From a virus, in IMG/VR virus record IMGVR_UViG_3300045988_142703, positions 1 to 16,210 of that record: a stretch of 16,210 bases of DNA. One strand, written 5' to 3'. The notes beneath the pieces are model-generated. The model saw nothing but the letters and a program-made list of their open reading frames with translations. It did no database searches and was not told where the DNA came from. This document shows positions 2,322 through 16,210 of the stretch, in pieces. Numbering within the stretch: the first letter of the stretch is position 1; every line of letters begins with the position of its first letter. The translations under genes and the position numbers were made by a program.

Positions 2322-4043
2322 ATGGACTACACCGCCGATTTCGAGACCACCACAGACCCGGACGATTGCCGGGTTTGGGCCTGGGCCGTGTGCACCATTG
2401 ACGCTGCCAACACAGTCACCATGGGCAACAGTATCGAGGGTTTTCTAGCTTTCTGCGCCACTAATCCCGGGTCTGATTTTTGGTTTCATAATCTGGCGTT
2501 CGATGGCGAATTCATTCTGAACCACTTATTAACAAGTGGTTGGCATCATGTGGAAAAATTCGACGGTTCGAAGCAAATCCGTTCGCTCATCTCGAAAATG
2601 GGGAAGTTCTATCAGCTTGAATTATGCTTTGAACGAAAAGGTAAAAAGCGCTCCAACAGTGTGAAGATCAAAGACAGTTTGAAAAAGCTCACTATGAGCG
2701 TTGAGGCAGTAGCCAAGGCGTTTAACCTGCCTATTGATAAACTGAGCATCGATTACGAGGCATACCGCGCACCTGGTCACGTGCTGACCGATGAGGAAAA
2801 GGCCTATATAACCAACGATGTTAAAATTATGGCCATGGCCCTGTATCAGGATTTTCAGAAAGGGCTCACGCGCCTTACGACTGGGGCCGACGCGCTGGCG
2901 AATTACCAGGATATTTTAGGCAAATACAACTGGCGCAAGCTGTATCCTGAAATGCCCGTTGAAATGGACGCCGCTATTCGCAAGGCATATAAAGGCGGGT
3001 GGACGTATGCCAATCCCCGCTACGCTGCCGACGAGGAGCATCCCGACAGGTGTGTGGGCGCTGGCAGTGTGTATGACAAAAACAGTATGTATCCGTCGGT
3101 GATGTACTCAAAGGCGTTGCCCGTCGGTATGCCCGTATACTTTCGCGGCGAGTATCCCGACGATGCGCACCACCCCTTATTTATCCAGTATTTGACCTGC
3201 TCGCTGAAACTCAAGTCAAACCATCTCCCCACATTGCAGGTCAAGGGCAACCCGTTTTACCGCGAAACCGAGTACATTACCGAAACCGACGGCTATGTAG
3301 ATTTGGCACTGACGAACATCGACCTTGAGTTAATGTACGAGCATTACCATGTCGACGTGCTGCAATTCAGCGGCGGTTACAAATTCCGGGCCATGCGCGG
3401 GATGTTCTGCGAGTACATTGACCACTGGATGCGTATTAAAGAGACCACCGAGGGGGGCCAGCGGTTGCGTGCCAAGCTGATGCTTAATGCGCTATACGGC
3501 AAGTTTGCCACCAACCCCGACGTTACGCCCAAGATACCTTATATCAAAGATGACGGCGCAACGGGCTATTACCTGGGCGATGAAGATACTCGCTCGCCCG
3601 TGTACACACCCATGGGTGCGTTCATCACCGCTTATGCGCGGCGTGACATTATAACCAACTGCCAGGCGATATATCCTCGCTTTCTGTACGCCGACACTGA
3701 CAGTATTCATTGCCTGGGCACTGAGCCTTTGGCCCTCGATGACGTGCACCCTACGCATCTCGGGGCGTGGAAGCATGAAAGCGATTTTGAAAAGGCAAAA
3801 TATCTACGGTCGAAAACCTACATGGAGCGGGTCACGCACGTCGGCAAAATGGTCGATGATGAATATAAAATGGTGGAGGTAGAGCCCTACAACGACATCA
3901 AATGTTGCGGATGCCCCGAGGCGTTGCGGGGGGCGATTACCTTTGACAATTTCAAGCGCGGCTTGTCACTTTACGGCAAGCTGCGGCCTAAACATGTTAG
4001 AGGCGGCATCGTGCTTGAGAAGACAGATTTTACGATTAGTTAG
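2322..4043 (+). CDS. Protein-primed family-B DNA polymerase (phi29 p2-like), 573 aa
   Basis: The protein aligns with phi29 DNAP from the N-terminus (MDYTADFETTTDPDDCRVWAW against ..YSCDFETTTKVEDCRVWAY). It has ExoI DFETTT, ExoII FHNLAFDGEFIL and ExoIII YITNDVKIM. It also has motif A DKNSMYPSVM, motif B KLMLNALYGKF, motif C YADTDSIH, KxY KYLRSKTY, and the C-terminus ...GGIVLEKTDFTIS (phi29 ...GGVVLVDDTFTIK). I take the ATG at 2322 as the true start rather than the ORF-track 2277. Confidence 0.96.
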   Translation: MDYTADFETTTDPDDCRVWAWAVCTIDAANTVTMGNSIEGFLAFCATNPGSDFWFHNLAFDGEFILNHLLTSGWHHVEKFDGSKQIRSLISKMGKFYQLELCFERKGKKRSNSVKIKDSLKKLTMSVEAVAKAFNLPIDKLSIDYEAYRAPGHVLTDEEKAYITNDVKIMAMALYQDFQKGLTRLTTGADALANYQDILGKYNWRKLYPEMPVEMDAAIRKAYKGGWTYANPRYAADEEHPDRCVGAGSVYDKNSMYPSVMYSKALPVGMPVYFRGEYPDDAHHPLFIQYLTCSLKLKSNHLPTLQVKGNPFYRETEYITETDGYVDLALTNIDLELMYEHYHVDVLQFSGGYKFRAMRGMFCEYIDHWMRIKETTEGGQRLRAKLMLNALYGKFATNPDVTPKIPYIKDDGATGYYLGDEDTRSPVYTPMGAFITAYARRDIITNCQAIYPRFLYADTDSIHCLGTEPLALDDVHPTHLGAWKHESDFEKAKYLRSKTYMERVTHVGKMVDDEYKMVEVEPYNDIKCCGCPEALRGAITFDNFKRGLSLYGKLRPKHVRGGIVLEKTDFTIS

Positions 4044-4052
4044 GAGTAAACT

Positions 4053-4310
4053 ATGGTCAGAAAGAAAGAACGTGGATGTACATTCAGCGCCGAGGAATTG
4101 GATTACCTCAATCAGCTGTCTGAACTGACCGAAAAAAGCGTGTCAGAGATTATACGCACTTCGGTACACAATCTTTGGGAGTTGACCGAGGCCATGAAAA
4201 CGGCTAACGGTGGCCTGCGGGCGCTCGATGTGGCCTACGAGTTCGCCAGCATTGACTTTAATTTCTCCAACGGTTATAATGCCGCCAACGGTGACAATCC
4301 TAGAGCGTAG
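4053..4310 (+). CDS. Small putative DNA-binding regulator, 85 aa, possibly with a ribbon-helix-helix fold
   Basis: It has a taggag RBS. The N-terminus is basic (MVRKKERG) and is followed by a pattern reminiscent of Arc/MetJ/CopG regulators (TFSAEELDYLNQLSELTEKSVSEIIRTSV). It sits at the early/late boundary directly upstream of a promoter-like element and a terminator. The fold assignment is inferred, not demonstrated. Confidence 0.4.
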   Translation: MVRKKERGCTFSAEELDYLNQLSELTEKSVSEIIRTSVHNLWELTEAMKTANGGLRALDVAYEFASIDFNFSNGYNAANGDNPRA

Positions 4311-4319
4311 CAGTATAAA
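4291..4319 (+). promoter_or_regulatory. Sigma-70-like promoter candidate: -35 GTGACA (4291-4296), 17-bp spacer, -10 TATAAA (4314-4319)
   Basis: GTGACA matches the -35 consensus at 5 of 6 positions and TATAAA matches the -10 consensus at 5 of 6, with ideal spacing. It overlaps the 3' end of the regulator gene. It faces the structured intergenic region and the late operon. Confidence 0.45.
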
Positions 4320-4325
4320 CCGCTG

Positions 4326-4442
4326 GCCCGTGGCACTGGTGAAACAGGGGTTAGCGGCCAGCCCGCCAAGCACCTGTCGCCTAGGGTAGCTGCCACTGTT
4401 GAACATTGCCCCCACTGCGGTTACCTGCGGTGGGGGCTTTTG
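4326..4442 (+). ncRNA. Candidate small structured RNA of about 115 nt. It is bounded by the promoter candidate and an intrinsic terminator, and it could be a pRNA-like packaging RNA or a regulatory leader.
   Basis: The 150-nt non-coding gap holds several elements: the inverted repeat gctggcc (4322-4328) / ggccagc (4356-4362), the direct imperfect repeat caggggttagcggcc / ctagggtagctgcc, and a terminal hairpin. The predicted TSS-to-terminator length is about 115 nt. A phage with gp16 and gp10 homologues would be expected to encode a pRNA. I did not see one at the left end. Confidence 0.3.
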
Positions 4443-4445
4443 CGC
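4409..4445 (+). terminator. Intrinsic terminator-like hairpin (cccccactgcgg-ttac-ctgcggtggggg, then cttttg) immediately before the late operon
   Basis: It has a 12-bp GC-rich stem with two G:U wobbles, a 4-nt loop and a short U-tract (4 U). The weak U-tract would allow partial read-through. Confidence 0.55.
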
Positions 4446-4460
4446 AAAGGAGCAAGAAAC

Positions 4461-4820
4461 ATGGATGAAGAGCTGAAGAATCTGCTCGAATGGCTCCGGA
4501 ACCGTTTGGACGATGGTGAGTACTCCACCGCCGAGACGTTTCTAACGGACGTATTCGGGAAGGCCGGGCGCTACGATGATGATATCTCGGTGCGCGACGC
4601 GAAAATCGAGCAGATCACGGGCGAGCGCGATACGGCGCTGGCCGATGTTAAGAATCTCAAGGCCCGCAATTACGATCTGCTTATGCAGATTCCGAGCGAC
4701 GGCGAAAATCAGGGCGACGGTACCGTGATTGAGTCCGTAGACGATGATGGCGAGGTTACTCACATTGATAACCTGTTCGTTGATGCCGACGAAAACGGCA
4801 ACCCGGTAAAGGAGGGTTAA
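4461..4820 (+). CDS. Putative head scaffolding protein, 119 aa
   Basis: The protein is acidic and predicted to be helical or coiled-coil (MDEELKNLLEWLRNRLDDGEY...). It lies immediately upstream of the major capsid gene, as phi29 gp7 does. An aaaggag RBS sits 8 nt upstream of the ATG at 4461. The ORF-track start at 4440 is a TTG. Confidence 0.55.
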   Translation: MDEELKNLLEWLRNRLDDGEYSTAETFLTDVFGKAGRYDDDISVRDAKIEQITGERDTALADVKNLKARNYDLLMQIPSDGENQGDGTVIESVDDDGEVTHIDNLFVDADENGNPVKEG

Positions 4821-4822
4821 TT

Positions 4823-6250
4823 ATGGCAACTAAGACAACCCGTGTGCTGAAAGCCGACAACGTATCTATTCTCTCGGCAATCTGGAACGATGCTTCAAGC
4901 GACTATCAGCGCCGTATTCCCCAGGCCGATCAGGCCGAGATTTCGGCGACGCTCAAGGCGCTGGACACGTACCCCATTCTTTGGAACGAGTCCGTGGGGG
5001 CTCTGGTCAACCGTATCGGCCTCATGGTCATGCAGACGAACACCTGGACGAATGGACTCAAATACCTCAAAAAGGGCATGATGGAGAATGGCGAGACCAT
5101 CGAAGAGGCGCGCACCAATCTTATTCAGGCACAGCGCTACGACCCCAATAAATGCTATGAGGATGTTTTCGCGTGCAACCCTCCCGAGACGGCGACCGCC
5201 TTCCACGAGATCAATCGCCAGGATTTCTACCCGCTCACTATCAACGAGCCGATTTTGCGCCGTGCCTTCTTGCGCAACGATGGTCTGCAGGAGTATTTGA
5301 CGGAGGTCATGAGCACCCCTTACACCTCTGATGAGTACGACGAGTACCTCATTATTAAAAATCTCTTCAAAGAGTACGAACAGGCTTACGGCTACTATAA
5401 GGTGCAGGTGCCCGCTGTTACCGATGTGCTCAACGGTCAGCAAGTGGAAGGTCAGGCCAAGGCCATTGCACAGGTGATTGACGAGTACAAGAGTCTCTTC
5501 AACTTCATGCGCACCGAATTCAACGGCCTGGGCTGGCCCACGTCCTCCAAGGGTTACGACATTGTGGTGTTTGCCACCCCGCGCCTGGCCTCCGTGTTGC
5601 GCGTTTACGTGCTGCCCTTTGCGTTTAAGGATAATTCCGCTATTAACGTGAACATTATCGAGATTGACGATTTCGGTATTCCCGGGTGCCAGGCCATCAT
5701 GGCCGATGAGCGTCATGTGATGTGCTACGACACTTATATGGCCTTCAAGGGCATTGAGAACCCGAAGGGCCGTCAGTGGAATTACTTCTGGCACCATGAC
5801 GGGATTTACTCGCTGTCTAAGTTCGTGAACGCCATCATGTTCACCACCGAGACGGGAACGGTGAACCCGGCTCAGCCGACCTACACCATCACCACCGTCA
5901 CCCCGGCGTTTGCCGCTGTGAATGGGGTTGTCCCGACGTTCGCGCCGAAGGGCACGGCTACGAAGCTCACGGCCACGGTGGAGGGCACCACTGCCCCTGA
6001 GGGTGCGGAGATTCCCCAGGCCGTCATGTGGTCGATTACCAAGAGCGCCGTACCTACGGCTCAGCACACCTATGTCGACTCCGACGGGTGGCTGCATGTC
6101 GCCGAGGACGAGGCCAACGCCACGTTGACTGTTACGGCCACCACACCCTACACCAACGTCCAGGGCGAAGCTGCCGTGTCGGGCGAGTTCGAAGCGGCCA
6201 TCGGTGCAGCTCCCACCGAGTCGAACGTTAACGACGAGGCAACGGAGTAG
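4823..6250 (+). CDS. Major capsid protein (phi29 gp8-like, HK97 fold) with a C-terminal Ig-like (BIG2-type) domain, 475 aa
   Basis: Matches to phi29 gp8 include VNRIGLMV against VDRIGLVV, TIEEA against TIEEI, and FHEINRQDFY against FHERNRQGFY. It also matches GRQWNYFWHHDGIYSLSKF against GLYWNYYYHVWQTLSVSRF. The T/V/A-rich C-terminal 120 aa resembles the surface Ig-like domain of gp8. Confidence 0.88.
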   Translation: MATKTTRVLKADNVSILSAIWNDASSDYQRRIPQADQAEISATLKALDTYPILWNESVGALVNRIGLMVMQTNTWTNGLKYLKKGMMENGETIEEARTNLIQAQRYDPNKCYEDVFACNPPETATAFHEINRQDFYPLTINEPILRRAFLRNDGLQEYLTEVMSTPYTSDEYDEYLIIKNLFKEYEQAYGYYKVQVPAVTDVLNGQQVEGQAKAIAQVIDEYKSLFNFMRTEFNGLGWPTSSKGYDIVVFATPRLASVLRVYVLPFAFKDNSAINVNIIEIDDFGIPGCQAIMADERHVMCYDTYMAFKGIENPKGRQWNYFWHHDGIYSLSKFVNAIMFTTETGTVNPAQPTYTITTVTPAFAAVNGVVPTFAPKGTATKLTATVEGTTAPEGAEIPQAVMWSITKSAVPTAQHTYVDSDGWLHVAEDEANATLTVTATTPYTNVQGEAAVSGEFEAAIGAAPTESNVNDEATE

Positions 6251-6253
6251 ACA

Positions 6254-8440
6254 ATGGCGAATCAGCAGCCGACAATCCTTGACGAGTTCGATTATTCCGT
6301 CTGGACACCGAACACGGTCATTGAGCTCATGCAGGTTCCGTGGGATTCGTCCTACCGCGATTTGGTGCGGTTCGAAGATTCCGACGCGAAAAAACAATGG
6401 TTCACGACCCAGGCTGCGAAGGGAACGGGAGCCCGGCTCACGGGCCTGGTTTATCTGAGATACGGGGAGCCCGTGCGGGTTCCCCTTCCCTTTTCCCAGT
6501 GCAATCAATTTAACTATTTAGTTGCACGCAATCCGCAGCAGCCCGTGCCGTCCCGCTCATCCACACCGACGCGCCAGCCGGACACGTTTTACTATTTTGT
6601 CACAGATGTTCAATACCTGGCCCCCAACTGCACCTTGCTAAATGTGCAGTTGGATGTATGGCAGACGTACTATGAGCGCTTGACATTCGGGCGTTCATAT
6701 GTCACGCGCGGACATATTGCCATGGCGAACAGCAACGCCACAATTCGCAACCTTGCCGACTACCTTACCGAGCCCGAGGGTTTGGAGTACGGCGACGAAT
6801 ACGAGGTAGTGCATCAGGAATTTGTGCCGATGACCCCCAGCGATGCCGAACCATGGGTTTTCATTATGTCCAACACGCGTCTAGATGAGGACTGGGGCAA
6901 TGTGCAGACCCCGAAACTCCAAACGGCCCAGGGCTCGAAGATCAACGGCGTGGTGGGCGGCGCCGCCTGTTACGTGGTTAAGTTCTCGGATTTTCTCGAA
7001 ACGGTCATGTGGCGTTTGGCGCAAGCCCCGTGGGTGTCGCAGGGCATTATGCAGATCACCATTCTACCCTCCGAAATGGTCAGCGTTGACACGTCCGGCA
7101 CCCCTGTGTACCTCGCCAACGATTCGAGTGCGGCGGGGTGCAGGTTGTACCCTCTTGCGTCCAATGCAAAGAGCTTCACCATTCGCACCATTACGGACAT
7201 TTGGCAAAAGTTCGCAATTCCCGAGCGTTATTACGATCTGTTAAAGCTCTACACCTCCCCCTATTGCATAATGGAGGTCACCAGTCTGCAGGGCGCACCC
7301 CTCATCTGCAAACCCGAGTGCTTCACGGTTGCCGCCGACGGGAATTCTGTCAACTGGCGTTACACCTATTGCGTCTGCCCGCCTGAAACCAAAATCGCGT
7401 GCTGGCCCACTCGTTACAATGCAGGTGCTGGCGACGATGCGTTGGCGGTGAGCGTCTACAACGGCGCGGGCCGCACTGTCAACGCCAATTTTGATGACGG
7501 CGAGGGGATGGATTTCGCGTGTCAGATCAGCAATTTTCCCCAGCTCTCAATTGTCAACAACATGTACCAAAACTACCTGGCGAGCACGGCCAATACCCGG
7601 GCGTTTCAGTTCTCGAATGCGTCGTGGGCACAGCAAAAGAGCTTGACCGCAGCCAACAATGCCTACAACGTCGCCCAGGCGGGCATGGACACGGCCCAGC
7701 GCAATCAGGACATTGCAAACCAGTTGACCATGCGGCAAACGGGCATCGGGTTGGAGCAAAACACGTGGAACGGTATTAAGAACATAGGAGGCTCGGTGGC
7801 CGGGGGAATCGGTGCGCTCGCGTCCGGCAATGTCGGCGGGGCCCTGTCGGGGGCCGCAAACGCCGCCCTGGGCTATGCCGACATGAGTTTCCAGGCGGAT
7901 TGGATGACCCGAAGCGCCGCCAATCAGATGAGCGCGCAGAATCAGACTTTGCGCAGCAACCTGGGTTACCAGGCCTATACCGCCGACACCAATTACAGCT
8001 ATGCCAATTTCGCCGCCAACGGCGACTACCAACAGGCGATTCAGGGCATCAACGCGACGGTGCGCGATGCGGCGCTGACTCAGCCTAGCGTGAGCGGCCA
8101 ACTCGGCGGCTCCATGTACAATTGGGCAAACGGCTATGTGGGCTTCCTTTTCAAATGGAAGCGAATCAAAACCCAGTACCTGCACCAAATCGGTGATTAC
8201 TTCATGCGCTATGGGTATTATGTAAACCGTTTTCTGGTGCCCCCCGCCGACCTGAAATGTATGAACCATTTCACCTACTGGCAGTTGCAGGACGCTGTTA
8301 TCTATGGCAATCTTCCCGAGGCGTTCCGTCAGGCATTGCGCGGCATTTTCGAAAGCGGTTGCACAGTGTGGAGCAATCCGGATGAGATCGGCAGAATCGA
8401 TTACGCCGTTAACACGGCGGTAAGCGGGGTGAGTTATTAA
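6254..8440 (+). CDS. Tail knob / distal tube protein (phi29 gp9-like), 728 aa
   Basis: EGLEYGDEYEVV matches phi29 gp9 EGLNYGSEYDIV. SPYCIMEVTSLQG matches YPYCVTEVTDFKG. YFMRYGYYVNRF..HFTYWQLQD matches FFHKYGYKINRV..AFNYVQTKD. A Gly/Ala-rich internal loop lies at about 7770-7870. Confidence 0.85.
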   Translation: MANQQPTILDEFDYSVWTPNTVIELMQVPWDSSYRDLVRFEDSDAKKQWFTTQAAKGTGARLTGLVYLRYGEPVRVPLPFSQCNQFNYLVARNPQQPVPSRSSTPTRQPDTFYYFVTDVQYLAPNCTLLNVQLDVWQTYYERLTFGRSYVTRGHIAMANSNATIRNLADYLTEPEGLEYGDEYEVVHQEFVPMTPSDAEPWVFIMSNTRLDEDWGNVQTPKLQTAQGSKINGVVGGAACYVVKFSDFLETVMWRLAQAPWVSQGIMQITILPSEMVSVDTSGTPVYLANDSSAAGCRLYPLASNAKSFTIRTITDIWQKFAIPERYYDLLKLYTSPYCIMEVTSLQGAPLICKPECFTVAADGNSVNWRYTYCVCPPETKIACWPTRYNAGAGDDALAVSVYNGAGRTVNANFDDGEGMDFACQISNFPQLSIVNNMYQNYLASTANTRAFQFSNASWAQQKSLTAANNAYNVAQAGMDTAQRNQDIANQLTMRQTGIGLEQNTWNGIKNIGGSVAGGIGALASGNVGGALSGAANAALGYADMSFQADWMTRSAANQMSAQNQTLRSNLGYQAYTADTNYSYANFAANGDYQQAIQGINATVRDAALTQPSVSGQLGGSMYNWANGYVGFLFKWKRIKTQYLHQIGDYFMRYGYYVNRFLVPPADLKCMNHFTYWQLQDAVIYGNLPEAFRQALRGIFESGCTVWSNPDEIGRIDYAVNTAVSGVSY

Positions 8441-9393
8441 TGGGTAAGAACAAGCCCAAGGCCGTTGTCTCCATACGCGACGGTGTGGCGACAATCAACA
8501 ACCAGCATCAGGCGCAATCGCGCAATGACGAGTACTATATGTTGTGGTATGACAACCTCTATCAGCTGGCAGCGGCCACGATCACCTGGGAGGGGATGCC
8601 CTCGGAAATTGATCGGCGCTTTGTGAACATGGCGCTGTTCGGTTCCGGTGTGGTGGTGTTCTATTGGGACAGTGATTACGACAAATATTTCTGTCTGCGT
8701 GCTGTTCCCAGCGGCACCATTGACATGTACAACAACCCAACCGCCTTCACCGCCTACGGGGCTGGCAATTACCATAAGCGGCTGAGTGCTGCCGAGTGCG
8801 TACCGATTTGGCTCAATTACAGGCGCGTCGGCATCCTGCCGATCATCGACCTATACGCGCGGCGGCTGGCAAACTACGACCGCACTATAGATGTCAACCT
8901 GGCCCAGCACAAAACGCCCGCCATCATCGAGTGCGACGAGCTGCAAAAGCTCAGCGTCGAAAACGCGCTCATGCAGGTTTACCAGGGCAAGCCCGTCGTG
9001 TTGGGCACCCCGGGGCTAACTTCGCTGTTGCAGGCCCATTACATCACCAATGAGGCCGCCTACATTGTAGATAAGCTCAACGATGACAAGAAAACATGCC
9101 TGCACGAGTTTCTCACGCTAATCGGCGTTGACAACTCGCCCGTTGACAAAATGGCGCGTGTGCAGTCTGCGGAGGTGGGCAGCAACAACGGCGAGATTGA
9201 AATGTTCCGCCTGGTGCGCTTCGACACCATCCGCGAGGGGTGCAAGGCCGTCAATCGCATGTACGGCACCACCGACGGCAACCGCCCTGCCGTGACGTTG
9301 TGGGCCGATTTCAATGGCGACTGGTCATCTGAGAACTGGGAGGCGCTAAACACATTGGAAGAGGTGAGCGACGATGACGGGCTACCCGATTAA
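8440..9393 (+). CDS. Head-tail connector / portal (upper collar, phi29 gp10-like), 317 aa
   Basis: YIVDKLNDDKK matches phi29 gp10 YVVDKLNAQKN. EFLTLIGV matches EMMTFLGI. Size and position fit. Its TAATG start overlaps the knob stop. Confidence 0.8.
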   Translation: MGKNKPKAVVSIRDGVATINNQHQAQSRNDEYYMLWYDNLYQLAAATITWEGMPSEIDRRFVNMALFGSGVVVFYWDSDYDKYFCLRAVPSGTIDMYNNPTAFTAYGAGNYHKRLSAAECVPIWLNYRRVGILPIIDLYARRLANYDRTIDVNLAQHKTPAIIECDELQKLSVENALMQVYQGKPVVLGTPGLTSLLQAHYITNEAAYIVDKLNDDKKTCLHEFLTLIGVDNSPVDKMARVQSAEVGSNNGEIEMFRLVRFDTIREGCKAVNRMYGTTDGNRPAVTLWADFNGDWSSENWEALNTLEEVSDDDGLPD

Positions 9394-10696: not shown

Positions 10697-11659
10697 ATGA
10701 CAACTTTCACGCCGAATTTCGACCTGGATTTGTACGAGGGCACGGACAAACCCGACCTTGCCGACCAGTACGCCGCCGCCATGCAAAAGATCGATACGGC
10801 CTTGCAGGCGGCTTTGGAGGCGCGGGCCGAATTGCAGAACAGCATTGGGACGCTCAACATTAATTTGACGGCCACCAACAAGGAGGTTTCTGACAATACG
10901 TCTGCAATCGCCGCCAATTCTGCGAGCATTGCCAGCCTGGACAGTTCCGTGGCTGACAATACGTCTGCAATCGCCGCCAATTCTGCGAGCATTGCCAGCC
11001 TGGACAGTTCCGTGGCATCGCTTAAAACCGAGGTGGACAAGAACACTCCGTTGGTCGAGGCCCACGTTAATTACTTTGCCGACCTCGGCGTGACCGATGA
11101 CCAGAGCGCCCAGGACTTGCACGAGCAAATTGACCAGAGTTTTCAGGGTGTTATGAGCAATACGCAGAGCATTACCGCATTGGAGCGGCAGCTGGGAGAG
11201 ACATACGATTTCGATGTGTCCGATGCTGTCAAGCCGCCGTGGCAAGATCGTTATAATTACTTTTACGTCGCAGTTAACAAACACAAGAACATACTGAAAT
11301 TCTACGGCATGATGATAGCGCAAACCGAATGGACAGCCACGAAACAAGCTGTACCCGGAGTGGTTATCGATGGAGAACAGTACTACGGAATCAAGCTTGA
11401 TTACGACACTGGGCTGAGACTTGAAAAGGGGCGTTATATTAACAACACGGGCATTTATTGGCGAGGAGGAGTCTTCTCGGCCACAAACGTCGCCACTCTT
11501 CCGTTCTCAATCGGCACCGATGGTTATATTTATGTGATGACGAACAATGTACCCGGTGAAATTACTTTGCCCGAAAACAGCGTTGGTATGCTTTTCCAGT
11601 GCCCTGTTTACCTTGGCGCGGGCGAGTGGGGTGTAGCACCCGAGCAACCAGGTGTGTAG
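10697..11659 (+). CDS. Putative tail fibre / receptor-binding protein with an N-terminal coiled-coil stalk carrying a tandem 21-aa duplication, 320 aa
   Basis: The N-terminal 130 aa are predicted helical with heptad-like periodicity (ALQAALEARAELQNSIGTLNINL...). They include two exact copies of DNTSAIAANSASIASLDSSVA. The C-terminal 150 aa are rich in Gly, Tyr and Asn, typical of a receptor-binding head. The gene lies between the collar and wall-hydrolase genes. Confidence 0.5.
   Translation: MTTFTPNFDLDLYEGTDKPDLADQYAAAMQKIDTALQAALEARAELQNSIGTLNINLTATNKEVSDNTSAIAANSASIASLDSSVADNTSAIAANSASIASLDSSVASLKTEVDKNTPLVEAHVNYFADLGVTDDQSAQDLHEQIDQSFQGVMSNTQSITALERQLGETYDFDVSDAVKPPWQDRYNYFYVAVNKHKNILKFYGMMIAQTEWTATKQAVPGVVIDGEQYYGIKLDYDTGLRLEKGRYINNTGIYWRGGVFSATNVATLPFSIGTDGYIYVMTNNVPGEITLPENSVGMLFQCPVYLGAGEWGVAPEQPGV
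10891..11016 (+). repeat. Perfect 63-bp tandem duplication (two copies, 62/63 identical) inside the tail-fibre gene
   Basis: The unit gacaatacgtctgcaatcgccgccaattctgcgagcattgccagcctggacagttccgtggct lies at 10891-10953. A second copy lies at 10954-11016, ending ..gtggca instead of ..gtggct. The duplication is in frame (21 aa, three heptads). Confidence 0.9.
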
Positions 11660-11661
11660 GT

Positions 11662-12930
11662 ATGGCCACCCCTGCACAAATAATCGAGTACAGCAAGTAC
11701 TGCATTGCCGCCGTGGAGTCTGATTTCACGTGGAATTCAGTTTACTGGGTGGATGCCATCACGTTGGGGATGTGGCAGTACTGGGGGCCCGAGGCAGGCG
11801 ACCATTTGCATCGAATGAAAGACCAGACCCCCGACGATTACGCGCAACTGTCGGCGAGCCTCCGCGCAAACGTGGAGGCTCACCCCGCTTCCTCGTCGTG
11901 GTGGGAGGGGTACCACTGGACACAGGCCGAGGGCAATTCTTGGAAGGCCGTCGCCAAGGATTCCGCGCAGAACCACGCCTTGCAGGAGCAGCAGATAAAC
12001 GAGCAACAGCAAACACAGCTCGATTACGTCATTGCTCAGTACGGTGCGAGCCTGGACAACCCCAAAGTTGCCGTTTACGTGCTCAACATGTACCACCAGA
12101 GCCCCGCCGCCTGCGGGCGCGTGTGCCGCTCCATAGGCGCGGGCACGGCATCGTTGGCGACGTGCCACACAACCGCCCTCAACGACAGGGTGCTGGGCAA
12201 CTATGCCACCCGTTACAACCGCGTAAAGGCGCTTTTAGATGCGTGGGACGGCACCAGTGCCCCGCCTGATTACGGTCAGGTGGGGCAGGTGACTGAAGGC
12301 GGCGATTCGCCGACCATCCAGGCCAAGCCATTGCAGTTGTCCTACATCATCCAAAGCGGAGATACTCTTTTGCTCTACGGCGCGGAAGGGTCGGGGTTTG
12401 AGAACGGAGTGCCCTTTTTCGCCGCCGGGGCTCAAAGATGGGTACCATCAAACAACCCGACCAACGTTGGCACCGATTCGGATTATTCCGACTCGGGCAC
12501 AGGCACGGGCAGCACCGCCGCCGCGCAGATCGTGGCCCTCATGGAATCATGGGAAAACCAATTCAGTTATTCGCAGTCTGGCGACCGACTGCACCCGGAT
12601 AAATCCGGTTATGGGGATTGCTCATCGGTGGTTTGGCGGGCCTATCAGCTCATCACAGGTAAGGACGTGGGCACCTGGACGGGCGAGCAGCGCACCAAGG
12701 GCCGAATGATCGCCAAGGGAGGGCCCGGCGATGCTTTTCCCGTATCGTCGGCCCAACCTGCGGATCTGCTCCAGGTGACGCACACCAACGGGGTTCAGCA
12801 TGTGGAAATGTACATGGGCGGTAACAGGCTTATGGGACACGGGTCGGCGCCCGGGCCCCATTGGAACAACTACAGCGCGACGGAGTATTGCGCCCGCCAA
12901 TCGGAATGGCAGCTTCGGAGGTACCTCTAA
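11662..12930 (+). CDS. Tail-associated peptidoglycan hydrolase (functional analogue of phi29 gp13), 422 aa. The N-terminal domain is lytic-transglycosylase (SLT)-like and the C-terminal domain is an NlpC/P60-like cysteine peptidase.
   Basis: The N-terminus has AVESDFTWNSVYWVDAITLGMWQYWG, an SLT-like pattern (ES...GLMQ with a catalytic Glu). The C-terminus has SGYGDCSSVVWRAY (Cys motif) and ADLLQVTHTNGVQHVEMYMGG (His motif), as in NlpC/P60. It lies downstream of the fibre gene and upstream of the packaging ATPase. Confidence 0.7.
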   Translation: MATPAQIIEYSKYCIAAVESDFTWNSVYWVDAITLGMWQYWGPEAGDHLHRMKDQTPDDYAQLSASLRANVEAHPASSSWWEGYHWTQAEGNSWKAVAKDSAQNHALQEQQINEQQQTQLDYVIAQYGASLDNPKVAVYVLNMYHQSPAACGRVCRSIGAGTASLATCHTTALNDRVLGNYATRYNRVKALLDAWDGTSAPPDYGQVGQVTEGGDSPTIQAKPLQLSYIIQSGDTLLLYGAEGSGFENGVPFFAAGAQRWVPSNNPTNVGTDSDYSDSGTGTGSTAAAQIVALMESWENQFSYSQSGDRLHPDKSGYGDCSSVVWRAYQLITGKDVGTWTGEQRTKGRMIAKGGPGDAFPVSSAQPADLLQVTHTNGVQHVEMYMGGNRLMGHGSAPGPHWNNYSATEYCARQSEWQLRRYL

Positions 12931-13985
12931 TGGCCGTGACGCTCGCAACGGATAACGTGCATTGGTCTAGCCATGACCTGCTCACCCGGGGCGGTATGTG
13001 GAATTACGCCATTGGGGGGCGCGGTGTGGGAAAAACCTATGACGCGAAGCTGAAACGCACGAAGCATTTTCTTAAAACTGGGAAGCAGTTTATCTATATG
13101 CGACGTTACGAAACCGAGTTCGCCGACAAGCAGGAGCTTTTCCAGGACGTGAAAGAGGAGTTTCCGAACCACGAAATCAAGGTGGAGGGCATGAGGGCCT
13201 ACATTCGGAAGAACACCGAAGTGGACGAGGACGGCAACGAGACCAAGCACCCCTGGCGGCTCTTCTGCTTTCTGGTGGCACTTTCTACAACTGTGGGCAA
13301 AAAATCGGTGCCCTACCCGGATGTTGATTACATTGTGTTCGATGAGTTTATCATTGACAAAGGTTTCATTCGCTATATCAGCAATGAGGTACGTATATTT
13401 CTGGAATTTTACAACACGGTGGACAGATTCACCGACCGTGTGCGGGTGCTGTTCCTCGCCAACGCCATTTCGATTGTCAACCCCTATTTTGTCTATTTCG
13501 GCATCAAACCGCGCAAGGGCCAACGCTTTTGCTCGATGATGGAGGGTTATCATGTGTGCGAAATGATAGAGTCAGAGGCCTACGTGGAGCGCGTCACGCA
13601 AACGAAATTCGGGCGCATGATCGCCAACACAGAGTATTTCGATTACGCCGTGGCCAACCGCTTCACCAACGATGAGAGCGAGTTCATAGCACCGAAATCG
13701 CCCCGCGCCGTGTACCAGTACAGTATAATATTCGACGGCCAGAAAATGGCCGTGTGGTACGATGCCGCCGACAACCGTTATTATGTTTGCGACCGTATCC
13801 CGCCAGACAAAGCGGCATATGTTGTGACAAAGCACGATCAGTCACCTGACATGATGATGGTTGATCGCGCGTCGCCATTGCTCAAGGGTCTTAAACGACT
13901 GTACATGATGGGAGGTGTCTATTTTACCAATGCGGCCATGCAGTCGGCCTTTTTCGATCTGCTCGACTATTTGAATCTACGTTAG
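12930..13985 (+). CDS. DNA packaging ATPase (phi29 gp16-like), 351 aa
   Basis: NYAIGGRGVGKTYDAKL...GKQFIYMRRYETEFADK...EFPNHEIKVEG aligns with phi29 gp16 NFVIGARGIGKSYAMKV...GEQFIYVRRYKPELAKV...EFPDHELVVKG. Walker A is GGRGVGKT and Walker B is YIVFDEF. A GGAGG RBS precedes the ATG at 12930, which forms a TAATG overlap. Confidence 0.92.
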   Translation: MAVTLATDNVHWSSHDLLTRGGMWNYAIGGRGVGKTYDAKLKRTKHFLKTGKQFIYMRRYETEFADKQELFQDVKEEFPNHEIKVEGMRAYIRKNTEVDEDGNETKHPWRLFCFLVALSTTVGKKSVPYPDVDYIVFDEFIIDKGFIRYISNEVRIFLEFYNTVDRFTDRVRVLFLANAISIVNPYFVYFGIKPRKGQRFCSMMEGYHVCEMIESEAYVERVTQTKFGRMIANTEYFDYAVANRFTNDESEFIAPKSPRAVYQYSIIFDGQKMAVWYDAADNRYYVCDRIPPDKAAYVVTKHDQSPDMMMVDRASPLLKGLKRLYMMGGVYFTNAAMQSAFFDLLDYLNLR

Positions 13986-15269: not shown

Positions 15270-15328
15270 CATGTGCTGTTTGTTCTCATTACAGCGATAT
15301 CCGCGCTGGCAGTGATGAGATAATTAAC

Positions 15329-15360
15329 AAAGCCCCTCGATTGAGGGGCTTTATTAGTTG
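15329..15360. terminator. Bidirectional intrinsic terminator between the convergent late operon (+) and the right-end genes (-)
   Basis: The sequence is aaagcccctc-gatt-gaggggcttt. It forms a perfect stem flanked by tttattagttgtt on the + strand and, on the - strand, by tttgtt. It therefore works in both directions. Confidence 0.65.
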
Positions 15361-15425
15361 TTGGCAAGGGTGATGAGCAGATCGTAATAGTCGCTATCTC
15401 GGTGCGCTGCAGCCTTCAAAGCGAT

Positions 15426-15903: not shown

Positions 15904-16210
15904 GGGGCGAGCGGTGGGAGAGTCTACATCGCCGCCCCGTGGTTCACATTATACACGCAAAGACAGACAAAGGCGGAATCCGTTACTAATTAGCCGTAGT
16001 GAACTTTGCATAATGATTATATGGTTACGCGGTTATGAAATTATAGGGATATATGATTACAGGATTATAGGGCATAATGATATAAGGATTATGGCGTTAT
16101 ATGATGCAATGATTATATGGTTATATCATTATATGATTCTGGAAAGTTAGCCATGGTTGTTATCGCCCTATTTGCTTTGGGGCTGACAATAGTGCAAAAA
16201 GGGGCACCAC
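15904..16210. repeat. Right inverted terminal repeat (ITR), 307 bp
   Basis: This is the mirror copy of 1-307. The ORF-track 'proteins' at 61-297(-) and 15863-16150(+) have the same sequence because they are the same DNA read in inverted orientation. Confidence 0.9.

Follow-up and report, generated by a model that had tools for sequence, protein, structure and literature searches.

To our knowledge, the prohead (packaging) RNA, pRNA, is the only RNA known to be an indispensable component of a motor that packages viral DNA; it also serves widely as a building block in RNA nanotechnology. In the 174-nt pRNA of phage phi29, as described by the Guo and Anderson laboratories, a linker joins domains I and II. 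Sizes of 174 nt and 120 nt are given for the phi29 pRNA (PMC11476376). The occurrence of pRNA has been described as confined to Bacillus phages (PMC11476376, PMC5066667, PMC12670572), both in reviews and in a covariance-model survey of 2025. According to Jin, Bohmer and Guo (PMC12670572), all known pRNAs have 3–4 paired loop bases, and two G-C pairs are enough. The closest known RNAs are the phi29-family pRNAs (Rfam RF00044, Phage_pRNA) of Bacillus phages phi29, PZA, M2/Nf, B103, SF5, GA1, DLc1 and relatives.

We analyzed the virus record IMGVR_UViG_3300045988_142703 over its whole length of 16,210 nt (the window). It is a complete phi29-like phage genome with 307-bp repeats at both termini and a gene set that includes a protein-primed DNA polymerase and a phi29-type capsid protein. 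Like phi29, this phage is a podovirus that replicates by protein priming and encodes both a gp10 connector and a gp16 ATPase. The RNA encoded at 4287–4442 is probably a divergent pRNA, judging from its conservation and covariation among related sequences.

Genome setting and transcript limits

A reading made from the sequence alone (the sequence-only reading) had named gp10 connector and gp16 ATPase homologues in this genome, and Pfam searches bore this out (Table 1). Genes for homologues of both proteins were also found in relatives. The connector has a basic N-terminus (MGKNKPK) and would be the expected docking partner of a pRNA; the gp16-type ATPase would be the expected partner of its A helix. 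The RNA gene is located between the polymerase and ribbon-helix-helix (RHH)-like genes and the scaffold gene, and is co-oriented with the late operon. The first late gene is presumed, from its position, to encode the scaffold protein.

An RHH regulator gene had also been proposed directly upstream of the RNA. The 85-aa ORF at this place is weakly RHH-like, its score against Pfam RHH_1 (E = 0.013, 15.9 bits) being below the cut-off; in Arthrobacter phage Mendel, its positional counterpart carries a ribbon-helix-helix annotation. The gap between the stop codon of this ORF (4310) and the next ATG (4461) is 150 nt. It had been taken for the only sizeable non-coding gap of the genome, which was not correct, since 588–747, 15270–15425 and the 307-bp terminal repeats also lack main ORFs. 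The 588–747 stretch is possibly occupied by a 64-aa ORF.

Table 1 Features of the RNA locus and of the genes considered with it (window coordinates).
Feature	Position	Strand	Details
RHH-like 85-aa ORF	4053–4310	+	Contains the promoter; final 24 nt shared with the RNA start
−35 hexamer	4252–4257	+	TTGACT; TTGAC/TTGAT kept at the same position in relatives
−10 hexamer	4275–4280	+	TATAAT
Whole RNA (predicted)	4287–4442	+	About 156 nt: 116-nt core, linker, 3′ hairpin with U-run
Core domain	4287–4402	+	116 nt
A helix, 5′ strand	4287–4307	+	AACGGUG, A, CA, AUCCUAG, A, GCG
Helix B, 5′ strand	4310–4313	+	GCAG; pairs with 4374–4377, takes the A helix up to the three-way junction
C helix, 5′ strand	4320–4329	+	CCGCUGGCCC; partner 4348–4357
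5′-side internal loop	4330–4335	+	GUGGCA; equivalent of the CE/right-hand loop
E hairpin	4336–4347	+	CUG-GUGAAA-CAG; 3-bp stem, conserved 6-nt loop
C helix, 3′ strand	4348–4357	+	GGGUUAGCGG; directly after the E hairpin, 0 unpaired bases between
D hairpin	4361–4371	+	GC-CCGCCAA-GC; equivalent of the left-hand loop
Helix B, 3′ strand	4374–4377	+	CUGU
A helix, 3′ strand	4378–4400	+	3-nt bulge A4388-G4389-C4390
Single-stranded linker	4402–4408	+	7 nt
3′ hairpin and UUUU	4409–4442	+	13 bp (4409–4421/4426–4438), loop UUAC, UUUU 4439–4442
Ribosome-binding site	4447–4452	+	AAGGAG
First late gene (presumed scaffold)	4461–4820	+	ATG at 4461; 119 aa
phi29-type major capsid gene	4823–6250	+	Directly after the presumed scaffold gene
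gp10-type connector (portal)	8440–9393	+	Pfam Phage_connector, 1.4e-41
gp16-type packaging ATPase	12861–13985	+	Pfam Podovirus_Gp16, 5.2e-64

The best sigma-70 match of the whole genome (11 of 12) was TTGACT-17-TATAAT at 4252–4280, within the end of the 85-aa ORF. A promoter-like site with a score of at least 10/12 was in place in 53 of 65 distinct flanks, and the distance from the end of the −10 hexamer to the first paired base of the RNA was 5–9 nt in these 65 flanks. From this conserved promoter, transcription is predicted to start near A4287 and not near 4326, where the sequence-only reading had placed the start of a transcript of about 115 nt. With its ends placed from the promoter and the U-run, the RNA would be about 156 nt long; 116 nt is the length of its core. 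The covariance models R1 and R2 matched 4286–4404 and 4286–4401 of this genome, respectively. The promoter proposed earlier, GTGACA (4291–4296) and TATAAA (4314–4319) with a 17-nt spacer, is present at these positions but was rejected: it is not conserved in relatives, and it lies within the RNA, one hexamer in the closing helix (5′ strand) and the other in a junction. In the relative L010, the scanner called a textbook promoter and a terminator about 150 nt apart. The conserved promoter and this promoter/terminator pair make the RNA look like a transcription unit of its own.

The GC-rich hairpin with a short U-tract that had been pointed out downstream was confirmed at the 3′ end of the RNA. 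Its energy is −26.7 kcal/mol, its stem covaries in relatives, and linker and hairpin were found in every family member. It is likely a leaky intrinsic terminator and the counterpart of pRNA domain II. A simple terminator scan of the genome did not list the hairpin at 4409–4442, because only four U follow it; the equivalent site in L010 was called as a terminator. The U-run after the hairpin is absent in L227, L135 and L176. The late genes start 10–25 nt 3′ of the hairpin in most members. In this genome the last U of the run is at 4442, with the ribosome-binding site from 4447 and the ATG at 4461, and most relatives are spaced alike; L010 and L011 carry an insert of about 85 nt that separates the terminator from the scaffold gene.

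Conservation, fold and covariation of the RNA

The sequence-only reading had named lack of conservation in relatives as evidence against it. We found the same RNA directly upstream of the scaffold/capsid genes in about 90 related contigs (58 distinct flanks), whose capsid proteins range from 93% down to about 41% identity. The RNA was kept in all relatives with a capsid protein at least about 41% identical, and its structure is maintained across backgrounds of 24% to 66% GC. In a clade of 32–34% capsid identity, model R2 gave no match despite a suggestive gap there. The cultured phages Pize (Curtobacterium), Mendel (Arthrobacter) and Voltaire (Glutamicibacter) have a helix-closed structured RNA and a hairpin in the same gap, with folding z-scores of −5.8, −6.2 and −4.0, respectively, and RNA sequences that can no longer be aligned. 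Among these three actinophages, the family covariance model matched only the RNA of Pize, and partially; those of Mendel and Voltaire were recognized from synteny and folding only. The RNA locus is at about 3937–4092 in Pize (MZ333134) and at about 4932–5073 in Mendel (MK016500). Searches of Mendel, Voltaire and Av-1 with R1 and R2 gave no match, and Av-1 was left unassigned. Most of the other relatives come from human gut metagenomes.

Other routes to relatives gave no match: comparison of the genome with cultured phages by megablast, a locus search in IMG/VR with a single protein, and an exact scan for the terminator sequence. A loose pattern of three DNA motifs yielded chance matches only in IMG/VR (loci L013–L092 and beyond), which were set aside. 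In L170 and L239, minus-strand model matches close to the left end had no C/E arm and, in the larger search, an E of about 0.9; they were regarded as chance.

The core folds into a closed domain with a three-way junction. The closing A helix has about 23 bp and is bulged, and the 3-nt bulge on its 3′ strand recurs among relatives as AGC, CAA, UCA or UAA. Helices 1–3, which make up the A helix, were 82–95% paired in the model-fitted alignment. Helix 4 (helix B) was just 66% paired because the alignment slips there; read by eye, its pair types vary by lineage (CAG/CUG, CAA/UUG, CCG/CGG and GCGG/CCGC). In helix 5 (the C helix), 84.5% of cells pair and all six pairs (6/6) showed double changes, with G-U/G-U of this phage becoming A-U/G-C in L001 and L132. 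Helix 6 (the E stem) was 100% paired with CG, UA, GC and AU types, and the consensus of the E loop in the family is G/U-U-G-A-A/U-A. The D stem of this phage has 2 bp only, contributing −1.8 kcal/mol. The D stems of relatives have 3–6 bp and are fully compensated, for example GCCGC/GCGGC vs GAACC/GGUUC; the D-stem columns of the alignment were poorly aligned and 65% paired. The core length among relatives is 110–126 nt.

The comparative structure lies 3.4 kcal/mol above the single-sequence minimum free energy (MFE) fold, which favors a shifted C pairing. This pairing (GCUGGCC/GGCCAGC) was dropped, as only CCGCUGGCCC/GGGUUAGCGG is kept by the compensatory changes in L001 and L132. Folding z-scores were −1.2 for the stretch of the sequence-only reading, −3.2 for 4287–4443 and −1.5 for the core. 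Thermodynamics alone is thus weak; it is the comparative data, not folding energy, that lift the RNA above chance.

A plain MAFFT alignment of eight relatives analyzed with RNAalifold showed compensatory changes in 19 of 33 pairs. In 36 sequences, whose alignment had been fitted to the model before pairs were counted, 83.5% of cells were paired vs 64.1 ± 0.8% after shuffling, and double changes were found in 30 of 35 pairs. The covariation score was 0.485 vs 0.176, and none of 500 shuffles was as high. Relatedness alone can lift sequences above such shuffle controls. With slid pairing partners, a control that retains relatedness, pairing fell from 83.5% to 47% or less. G-U pairs are frequent (e.g., 19 at columns 5/133), which points to an RNA read from the plus strand.

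The sequence-only reading had also asked for two interlocking loops. U4331–C4334 of the internal loop is complementary to G4365–A4368 of the D loop over 4 bp (UGGC with GCCA), and the five bases that precede the E stem are complementary to the D loop in 21 lineages with differing sequences. The pairings include UGGC:GCCA, UCGC:GCGA, UGCUA:UAGCA and UGCCA:UGGCA, as well as UGAUA:UAUCA, UUGCC:GGCAA, GCAA:UUGC and CAGCU:AGCUG. The central pair is present in all 21 lineages (GC in 9, CG in 11, AU in 1), and the central three pairs in 19–21 of them, with three to four standard pair types per position. In the close relatives L001, L005, L006 and L008, the loop-loop pairing has 3 bp only. With D loops delimited by hand and the pairing register picked for best fit, cognate loops formed on average 4.1 of 5 pairs vs 3.3 for non-cognate loops, and the contiguous pairing score was 10.85 vs 8.02 ± 0.45 when permuted; both values were higher than in all 100,000 permutations. 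Wide loop windows cut objectively discriminated much less (11.9 vs 10.6; 9 of 100,000 permutations).

Loop Watson-Crick complementarity kept by covariation is likewise a property of kissing-loop viral RNAs such as the retroviral dimerisation initiation site. Retroviral-type kissing loops are self-complementary and give homodimers, whereas here two different loops of one molecule match, as they do in pRNA, where closed rings result. The AGCU of Mendel is the sole palindromic case. The internal loop is also complementary to 4376–4381, solely in the subgroup of this phage.

Comparison with phi29 pRNA and proposed working

The core of the RNA (116 nt; 110–126 nt in the family) is similar in size to that of phi29 pRNA (117–120 nt), and both are closed by a long bulged 5′/3′ helix, of about 23 bp here vs about 22 bp in the Rfam phi29 consensus. 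Both RNAs have a three-way junction, a C helix with an internal loop on its 5′ side, a D hairpin, a hairpin with a 6-nt E loop that leads straight into the C 3′ strand, and a covarying complementarity of the D loop to the internal loop over 3–5 bases. Each has its own sigma-70-type promoter, and the linker and 3′ hairpin at 4402–4442 resemble the phi29 linker and domain II. The earlier proposal of a pRNA-like structured RNA at the early/late boundary is thereby supported by conservation, covarying helices, phi29 topology and complementary covarying loops.

There are also differences. The RNA gene lies in mid-genome upstream of the late operon, whereas that of phi29 is at the left end (201–318) behind the early promoter A1. 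The A helix carries its 3-nt bulge on the 3′ strand here and on the 5′ strand in phi29. The E stem has 3 bp vs 4 bp in phi29, and its loop is of the GUGAAA consensus vs UUGAGU. Compared with phi29 pRNA, the junction strands are longer and the sequences GC-rich, and the hosts are not Bacillus, unlike those of the RF00044 phages.

RF00044 gave no match in the whole genome (gathering score and E ≤ 10), in a 176-nt stretch searched alone with lax filters (E ≤ 10) or in 10 relatives; its gathering threshold is 100 bits, and phi29 as the positive control scored 145 bits. The sequence-only reading had listed such a lack of matches as counting against it; the outcome excludes only membership of the Bacillus-phage sequence family. 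In the reverse direction, the family model built here gave phi29 pRNA 6 bits and no scoring match. What is shown is therefore an equivalence of architecture with Bacillus pRNAs, and not homology. Weak Rfam matches to Phe_leader, Leu_leader and NsiR1 were caused by the terminator hairpin alone and were discarded. No other pRNA candidate was found in the genome or in 10 relatives with Rfam and models R1 and R2. At either genome end, Rfam and both family models gave no pRNA-like match, in agreement with the earlier report of no candidate at the left end.

By analogy with phi29, we infer the transcription of this RNA, its ring formation, its binding to the prohead and its packaging role. Transcription from the sigma-70-type promoter at 4252–4280 would begin near A4287 and, in most cases, stop near 4442 at the 3′ hairpin and its U-run. 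Each RNA would pair through its internal loop with the D loop of the next molecule (UGGC with GCCA), and these contacts would close an RNA ring on the connector before the prohead is filled. In this ring, the E/C/D end would rest on connector and capsid, and the outward A helices would dock the gp16-type ATPase, which would pump the protein-capped DNA into the head.

The findings suggest that a large group of phages from the gut and from actinobacteria likewise package their DNA with the help of an RNA. If so, this RNA would be a second class of pRNA, unrelated in sequence, of the same architecture and outside Bacillus phages, and the RNA-dependent motor would be general to phi29-like phages with small gp16-type ATPases rather than peculiar to Bacillus. 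Such a class would also inform the question of an ancient origin or a later acquisition of pRNA. For comparison and engineering, dozens of naturally varied three-way junctions and kissing loops would become available, and tractable systems would be at hand, since Pize, Mendel and Voltaire are cultured. With a pRNA placed at the start of the late operon, one would newly have to ask how it is released from the late mRNA or coordinated with it.

Other readings and the late operon

The late genes follow right after the hairpin, so that the RNA may also serve as their leader. As several lineages have no U-run and the late genes begin 10–25 nt downstream, the RNA possibly stays on the late mRNA; unless processed, it may remain joined to it. 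Instead of a packaging RNA, it could be a leader or attenuator that acts in cis on the late operon, its structured 5′ region and hairpin setting how many transcripts from the strong promoter continue into the scaffold, capsid and tail genes. Such control might act by alternative folds or through a factor, for example the RHH-like protein. The sequence-only reading had offered an attenuator as its fallback; as the sole function we consider it unlikely.

The layout of promoter, structured RNA, GC-rich hairpin with U-run and operon is that of attenuators and leaders such as amino-acid operon leaders and riboswitch platforms, in which downstream expression needs read-through, as it does here. In most members, including this genome, there is no room for a separate late promoter, and the terminator stands between the promoter and the late genes; L010 and L011, with their 85-nt insert, are exceptions to the short spacing. 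The U-run is short (UUUU), interrupted or absent in several lineages, and a putative DNA-binding protein gene lies directly upstream. In some lineages the C-helix 5′ strand is strongly complementary to the 5′ arm of the hairpin and could act as an antiterminator, an attenuator-like feature. This pairing has 8 bp and −21.1 kcal/mol in L005 and 8 bp in L176, and in the main gut group (−21.0) it is stronger than the group's own C helix (−14.9). Cognate pairings exceeded non-cognate ones except in 975 of 100,000 permutations. It is strong in L005, L163, L213, L239 and L176 and at background level in most other lineages.

Against a leader as the sole function, the alternative pairing is at the non-cognate level in this genome (−12.3) and absent in at least 10 of 18 lineages, and thus neither family-wide nor present here. 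Unlike attenuators, the RNA has no leader peptide, and what is conserved in it is not a pair of competing hairpins but a closed domain with a three-way junction and kissing loops. A simple attenuator has no need of a 23-bp bulged helix, a three-way junction, an invariant hexaloop and covarying loops. This full set of features is a pRNA signature, here found only in genomes with gp10 and gp16 homologues. With the inserts of L010 and L011, the RNA is not always the immediate leader. Control of the late operon fits a pRNA as a second role and explains less as the only one.

We tentatively consider it possible, with some doubt, that the pRNA is both packaging RNA and gatekeeper of the late operon, one strong promoter giving both products. 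Transcripts with a folded core would terminate at the 3′ hairpin or be cut in the linker, yielding free pRNA, while those reading through would be the mRNA for scaffold, capsid, connector and ATPase. In some lineages, read-through would be aided when the C-helix 5′ strand pairs with the hairpin at its 5′ arm. The supply of pRNA would thereby be coupled to that of the proheads that need it. We know of no such arrangement in phi29, which makes its pRNA early and separately, from the end of the genome.

A trans-acting small RNA with another role, for example as a regulator that self-associates by kissing loops or as a scaffold for a different protein, would make the likeness to pRNA convergent. 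It would agree with the RNA's own promoter and hairpin, its conserved structure and the absence of an RF00044 sequence match, and the loop-loop complementarity could also form within one molecule as a tertiary contact. The data suggest no target complementarity or other partner for it, and the RNA is always linked to a phi29-like head and packaging module. In its size, the lengths of its helices and the positions of its loops, the RNA agrees with pRNA for each element, which would otherwise be a striking coincidence, and we regard this explanation as quite improbable.

That there is no functional RNA at all, but an early-operon terminator and a late promoter with apparent structure from GC-rich sequence and shared ancestry, would suit the unremarkable folding energy of the core but is very hard to credit, given the compensatory double changes, the slid-partner controls and a structure that holds over the whole GC range and in the unalignable RNAs of Pize, Mendel and Voltaire. 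Moreover, a hairpin that merely separated two operons would have the promoter downstream of it, whereas here the promoter is located upstream.

Conservation and secondary structure of the RNA element

The + strand of the genome carries, from left to right, genes for a phi29-type SSB, a probable terminal protein and a protein-primed family-B DNA polymerase, then an 85-aa ORF, a 150-nt gap, and genes for a 119-aa protein (presumed scaffold, by position) and a phi29-type major capsid protein. These are followed by genes for the gp9 tail knob, gp10 connector, lower collar, gp16 packaging ATPase, holin, and GH25 lysin. No cultured phage close to this genome at the DNA level was found; the nearest capsid proteins of cultured phages, from podophages of Curtobacterium, Glutamicibacter, Arthrobacter, Microbacterium, and Actinomyces, were ~35% identical. 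The sequence-only reading had described the gap as the only sizeable one, which was incorrect, as main ORFs are likewise absent from 588-747, 15270-15425, and the terminal repeats.

Relatives were collected by a capsid-protein search (identities graded from 90, 76, 65, 60, 57, and 50% downward), and all of their contigs keep a gap of 150-235 nt between the small ORF and the scaffold gene. The aligned gaps contained the invariant blocks ACGGUG, GGCA, GGURAAAC, and CACYGU. ACGGUG and CACYGU pair with each other and were 110-118 nt apart in every case, and the hairpin and T-run were kept, with the stem varying by compensation. A further 160 contigs, most of them from metagenomes of the human gut, came from two profile-based locus searches, and iterated nhmmer detected the element in ~89 of them (58 distinct flanking sequences). 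Two covariance models built from the candidate RNA and its relatives, R1 (8 sequences) and R2 (28 sequences), confirmed the nhmmer matches and added contigs L167, L171, and L169. The element was always located directly upstream of the scaffold gene and was present in every relative with a capsid identity of at least ~41%, contrary to the lack of conservation that the earlier reading had envisaged as one outcome.

RNAalifold on plain MAFFT alignments recovered a long closing helix, the C helix, and a small hairpin. All pairs of the comparative structure (see table) are standard, and its energy was 3.4 kcal/mol above the minimum free energy. The RNA was assigned to the + strand because it contains many G-U pairs. 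The GC-rich 3' hairpin noted from the sequence was confirmed, together with the UUUU that follows it (4439-4442). The folding energy of the originally proposed stretch was unremarkable (z = -1.2); that of the corrected RNA (4287-4443) was modest (z = -3.2), with z = -1.5 for the core alone.

Pairs were counted in 36 sequences aligned to R2, a fit to the model that favours the structure; 83.5% of cells formed pairs, whereas shuffles gave 64.1 ± 0.8% and sliding the partners by 1-3 columns gave no more than 47%. Both-sided changes occurred in 30 of the 35 pairs, and the covariation score of 0.485 (0.176 in shuffles) was matched by none of 500 shuffles. Every cell of the E stem was paired (100%), and four pair types occurred in it. 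Pairing was lower in helices B and D (~65%), where the window's subgroup, whose D stem is short, was misaligned. The MAFFT-based results, which are independent of the R2-fitted alignment, pointed in the same direction. The element is a real, conserved, structured RNA.

Elements of the candidate RNA and inserts in two related contigs
Feature	Positions	Strand	Detail
A helix	4287-4307 with 4378-4400	+	bulge A4388-C4390
Helix B	4310-4313 with 4374-4377	+	GCAG / CUGU
Junction	4314-4319	+	UAUAAA
C helix	4320-4329 with 4348-4357	+	CCGCUGGCCC / GGGUUAGCGG
Internal loop	4330-4335	+	GUGGCA
E hairpin	4336-4347	+	CUG-GUGAAA-CAG
D hairpin	4361-4371	+	loop CCGCCAA
Linker	4402-4408	+	single-stranded
3' hairpin	4409-4438	+	13 bp, loop UUAC
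Insert, L010	1274-1362		inverted repeat GTTATGTAAA...TTTACATAAC around TAGAAT hexamer
Insert, L011	3924-4014		inverted repeat GTTATGTAAA...TTTACATAAC around TAGAAT hexamer

The internal loop is also complementary to UGUCGC at 4376-4381 in the 3' strand of helix B, and contig L005 has a perfect 6-bp version (ACGGCA/UGCCGU). This second complementarity is confined to the window's subgroup and may reflect either chance or an alternative fold. Weak minus-strand matches to the covariance models were also obtained close to the left end of L170 (494-594) and L239 (815-915). They resemble just the A helix, without the C/E arm, and are probably due to chance.

Comparison with phi29 pRNA

In a positive control with left-terminal phi29 sequence, RF00044, the Rfam pRNA family of Bacillus phages, scored 145 bits, and it gave no match, even at E ≤ 10, on a 176-nt stretch of the window; the candidate RNA lies outside this sequence family. 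Similarity to phi29 pRNA at the sequence or model level is likewise absent, with R2 scoring only 6 bits on phi29. The elements, however, are identical in kind and order and similar in size. The RF00044 consensus consists of a 22-bp A helix with bulges, one junction base, a 9-bp C helix, a 9-nt internal loop restricted to the 5' side, an E hairpin (4-bp stem, 6-nt loop UUGAGU) leading straight into the C 3' strand, UUU, and a D hairpin (6 bp, 5-nt loop) leading straight into the A 3' strand. The UGA core of the E loop is common to phi29 and the candidate RNA family (GUGAAA, UUGAAA, UUGAAU, UUGAUU). As in phi29, the predicted 5' end is the base of the A helix, whereas the gene is at another genome position.

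Neighbouring phi29 pRNA molecules pair through the internal (right-hand) loop of one and the D (left-hand) loop of the other, the two loops covarying among phages (PMC12670572, PMC4201828). In every lineage examined, the five bases 5' of the E stem were complementary to the D loop, while the sequences differed. The pairs (internal loop:D loop) were UGGC:GCCA in the window, UCGC:GCGA in L212, UGCUA:UAGCA in the main gut group, UGCUA:UAGCG in L239, UGCCA:UGGCA in L168, UGCCA:UGGUA in L133, UGAUA:UAUCA in L176, UUGCC:GGCAA in L135, GCCA:UGGC in L167, GCAA:UUGC in L169 and Curtobacterium phage Pize, ACGC:GCGU in L175, GGCA:UGCC in L010, and CAGCU:AGCUG in Arthrobacter phage Mendel. Four close relatives of the window had just three loop-loop pairs. 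In a common register, the central pair formed in 21/21 lineages (GC 9, CG 11, AU 1) and its neighbours in 19/21 and 20/21. With D loops delimited by hand and the best-fitting register, cognate loops formed on average 4.1 of 5 pairs and non-cognate loops 3.3 (0/100,000 permutations), and the contiguous-pairing score was 10.85 against 8.02 ± 0.45 (0/100,000). With wide, objectively cut windows, the contrast shrank to 11.9 against 10.6 (9/100,000). Judged by complementarity, the pairing could form either between molecules or within one.

The gene order is the same in Pize, Mendel, and Glutamicibacter phage Voltaire: polymerase, a small ORF (with a ribbon-helix-helix annotation in Mendel), a 160-175-nt gap, scaffold, and capsid. 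Their gaps contain a helix-closed domain and a strong hairpin (z = -5.8 in Pize, -6.2 in Mendel, and -4.0 in Voltaire). R2 recognised the C/E arm of Pize, and an E hairpin of the same form is present in Mendel and Voltaire. A distant gut clade (32-34% capsid identity, 46% GC; L184 5111-5265, L188, L190, L199, L276) keeps the syntenic gap, with an arm that combines a 5'-side loop AUGCAA with a UACC-GUGA-GGUA hairpin. Another hairpin in this gap, CGCGG-AAUUG-CCGCG, has a complementary loop (GCAAU:AUUGC). This gap gave no R2 match and its closing helix was not evident, but it looks like the same design. At the syntenic position, Microbacterium phage PineapplePizza has just 52 nt (1964-2015), and Actinomyces phage Av-1 (4502-4611) has a 65-nt hairpin and a strong terminator behind an annotated promoter (z = -5.6). 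If these two phages have a pRNA, it is different or elsewhere.

Every structural feature of pRNA that is computationally testable was found in the candidate RNA. Conservation, covariation, pRNA topology, and complementary loops favour the original proposal of a pRNA-like RNA at the early/late boundary; we infer its function from these, and consider it probable that the element is a divergent pRNA.

We found no report of pRNA outside Bacillus phages in the searchable literature; a pRNA-like region was reportedly once proposed in pneumococcal phage Cp-1. Phages DLc1, BC-5, Baseball_field, vB_BceP_LY3, BFSP1, and GA1 are, to our knowledge, all Bacillus phages. These are the names in the accessible part of a 2025 Infernal-based survey that added 12 pRNAs (PMC12670572). 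Reviews from 2016 (PMC5066667) and 2024 (PMC11476376) describe pRNA as, so far as known, unique to phi29 and related Bacillus phages, and a paper on Clostridium perfringens podophages mentions it only as a presumed ATPase partner (PMC3362512).

Transcription signals and possible leader role

The GTGACA (4291-4296) and TATAAA (4314-4319) hexamers first proposed as the promoter are present, but TATAAA is not conserved in relatives and another site ranks first. The top sigma-70 match in a genome-wide scan was TTGACT-17-TATAAT (4252-4280, 11/12), in the 3'-terminal part of the 85-aa ORF, and a promoter is conserved at this position in the gap alignment. A match of at least 10/12 with its -10 ending 5-9 nt before the first paired base was found in 53/65 distinct flanks. 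The 85-aa ORF (4053-4310, +) is weakly ribbon-helix-helix-like (Pfam RHH_1, E = 0.013, residues 13-40). The promoter and RNA 5' end lie within its last 60 nt; therefore, protein-coding, promoter, and RNA-structure constraints overlap.

The 3' hairpin was present in all members (-16 to -32 kcal/mol). Some lineages have a short or interrupted U-run after it, or none. The scaffold ribosome-binding site is within 10-25 nt of this hairpin; therefore, either read-through must reach the late genes or the RNA must be released by cleavage of a longer transcript. L010 and L011 differ in having a textbook promoter and terminator ~150 nt apart and then ~85 extra nt before the scaffold gene, an insert whose repeat-flanked TAGAAT hexamer may be a separately regulated late promoter.

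The candidate RNA could instead be an attenuator of the late operon, the C-helix 5' strand pairing with the hairpin 5' arm as an antiterminator conformer. Strong complementarity between the two was found in L005, the main gut group, L239, L213, and L176 (for example, CCGCGCCG/CGGCGCGG and AUACAUAC/GUAUGUAU), and it equalled that to the strand's own partner in L005 (3872-3879, arm near 3975), L163, L239, L213, and L176. In the window and in most of the remaining lineages, it was no stronger than background (permutation test, 975/100,000). The element may have a leader role in the late operon alongside a pRNA role.

Other features of the genome

The window is a complete linear genome of 16.2 kb with inverted terminal repeats (1-307 and 15904-16210) that are 99% identical. 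At 307 bp, they are long for a phi29-like phage, the repeats of phi29 being 6 bp. The 16-nt sequence TAACCATATAATCATT occurs twice per repeat, 96 nt apart (88-103 and 184-199), and the repeats may contain replication-origin or early-promoter elements.

Two terminator-like hairpins (6431-6485) lie ~180-230 nt into the gp9 tail-knob ORF, just past the stop of the capsid gene; a T-rich tail follows the second, GGGGAGCCCGTGCGGGTTCCCC. Both hairpins may lower transcription 3' of the capsid gene. An ORF for a coiled-coil-like protein in the tail/appendage region (10697-11659) contains a perfect 63-bp tandem duplication (21 codons) at 10890-11015. A bidirectional terminator hairpin (15322-15359), located between the lysin gene and small minus-strand ORFs at the right end, accounts for weak Rfam Phe_leader matches.
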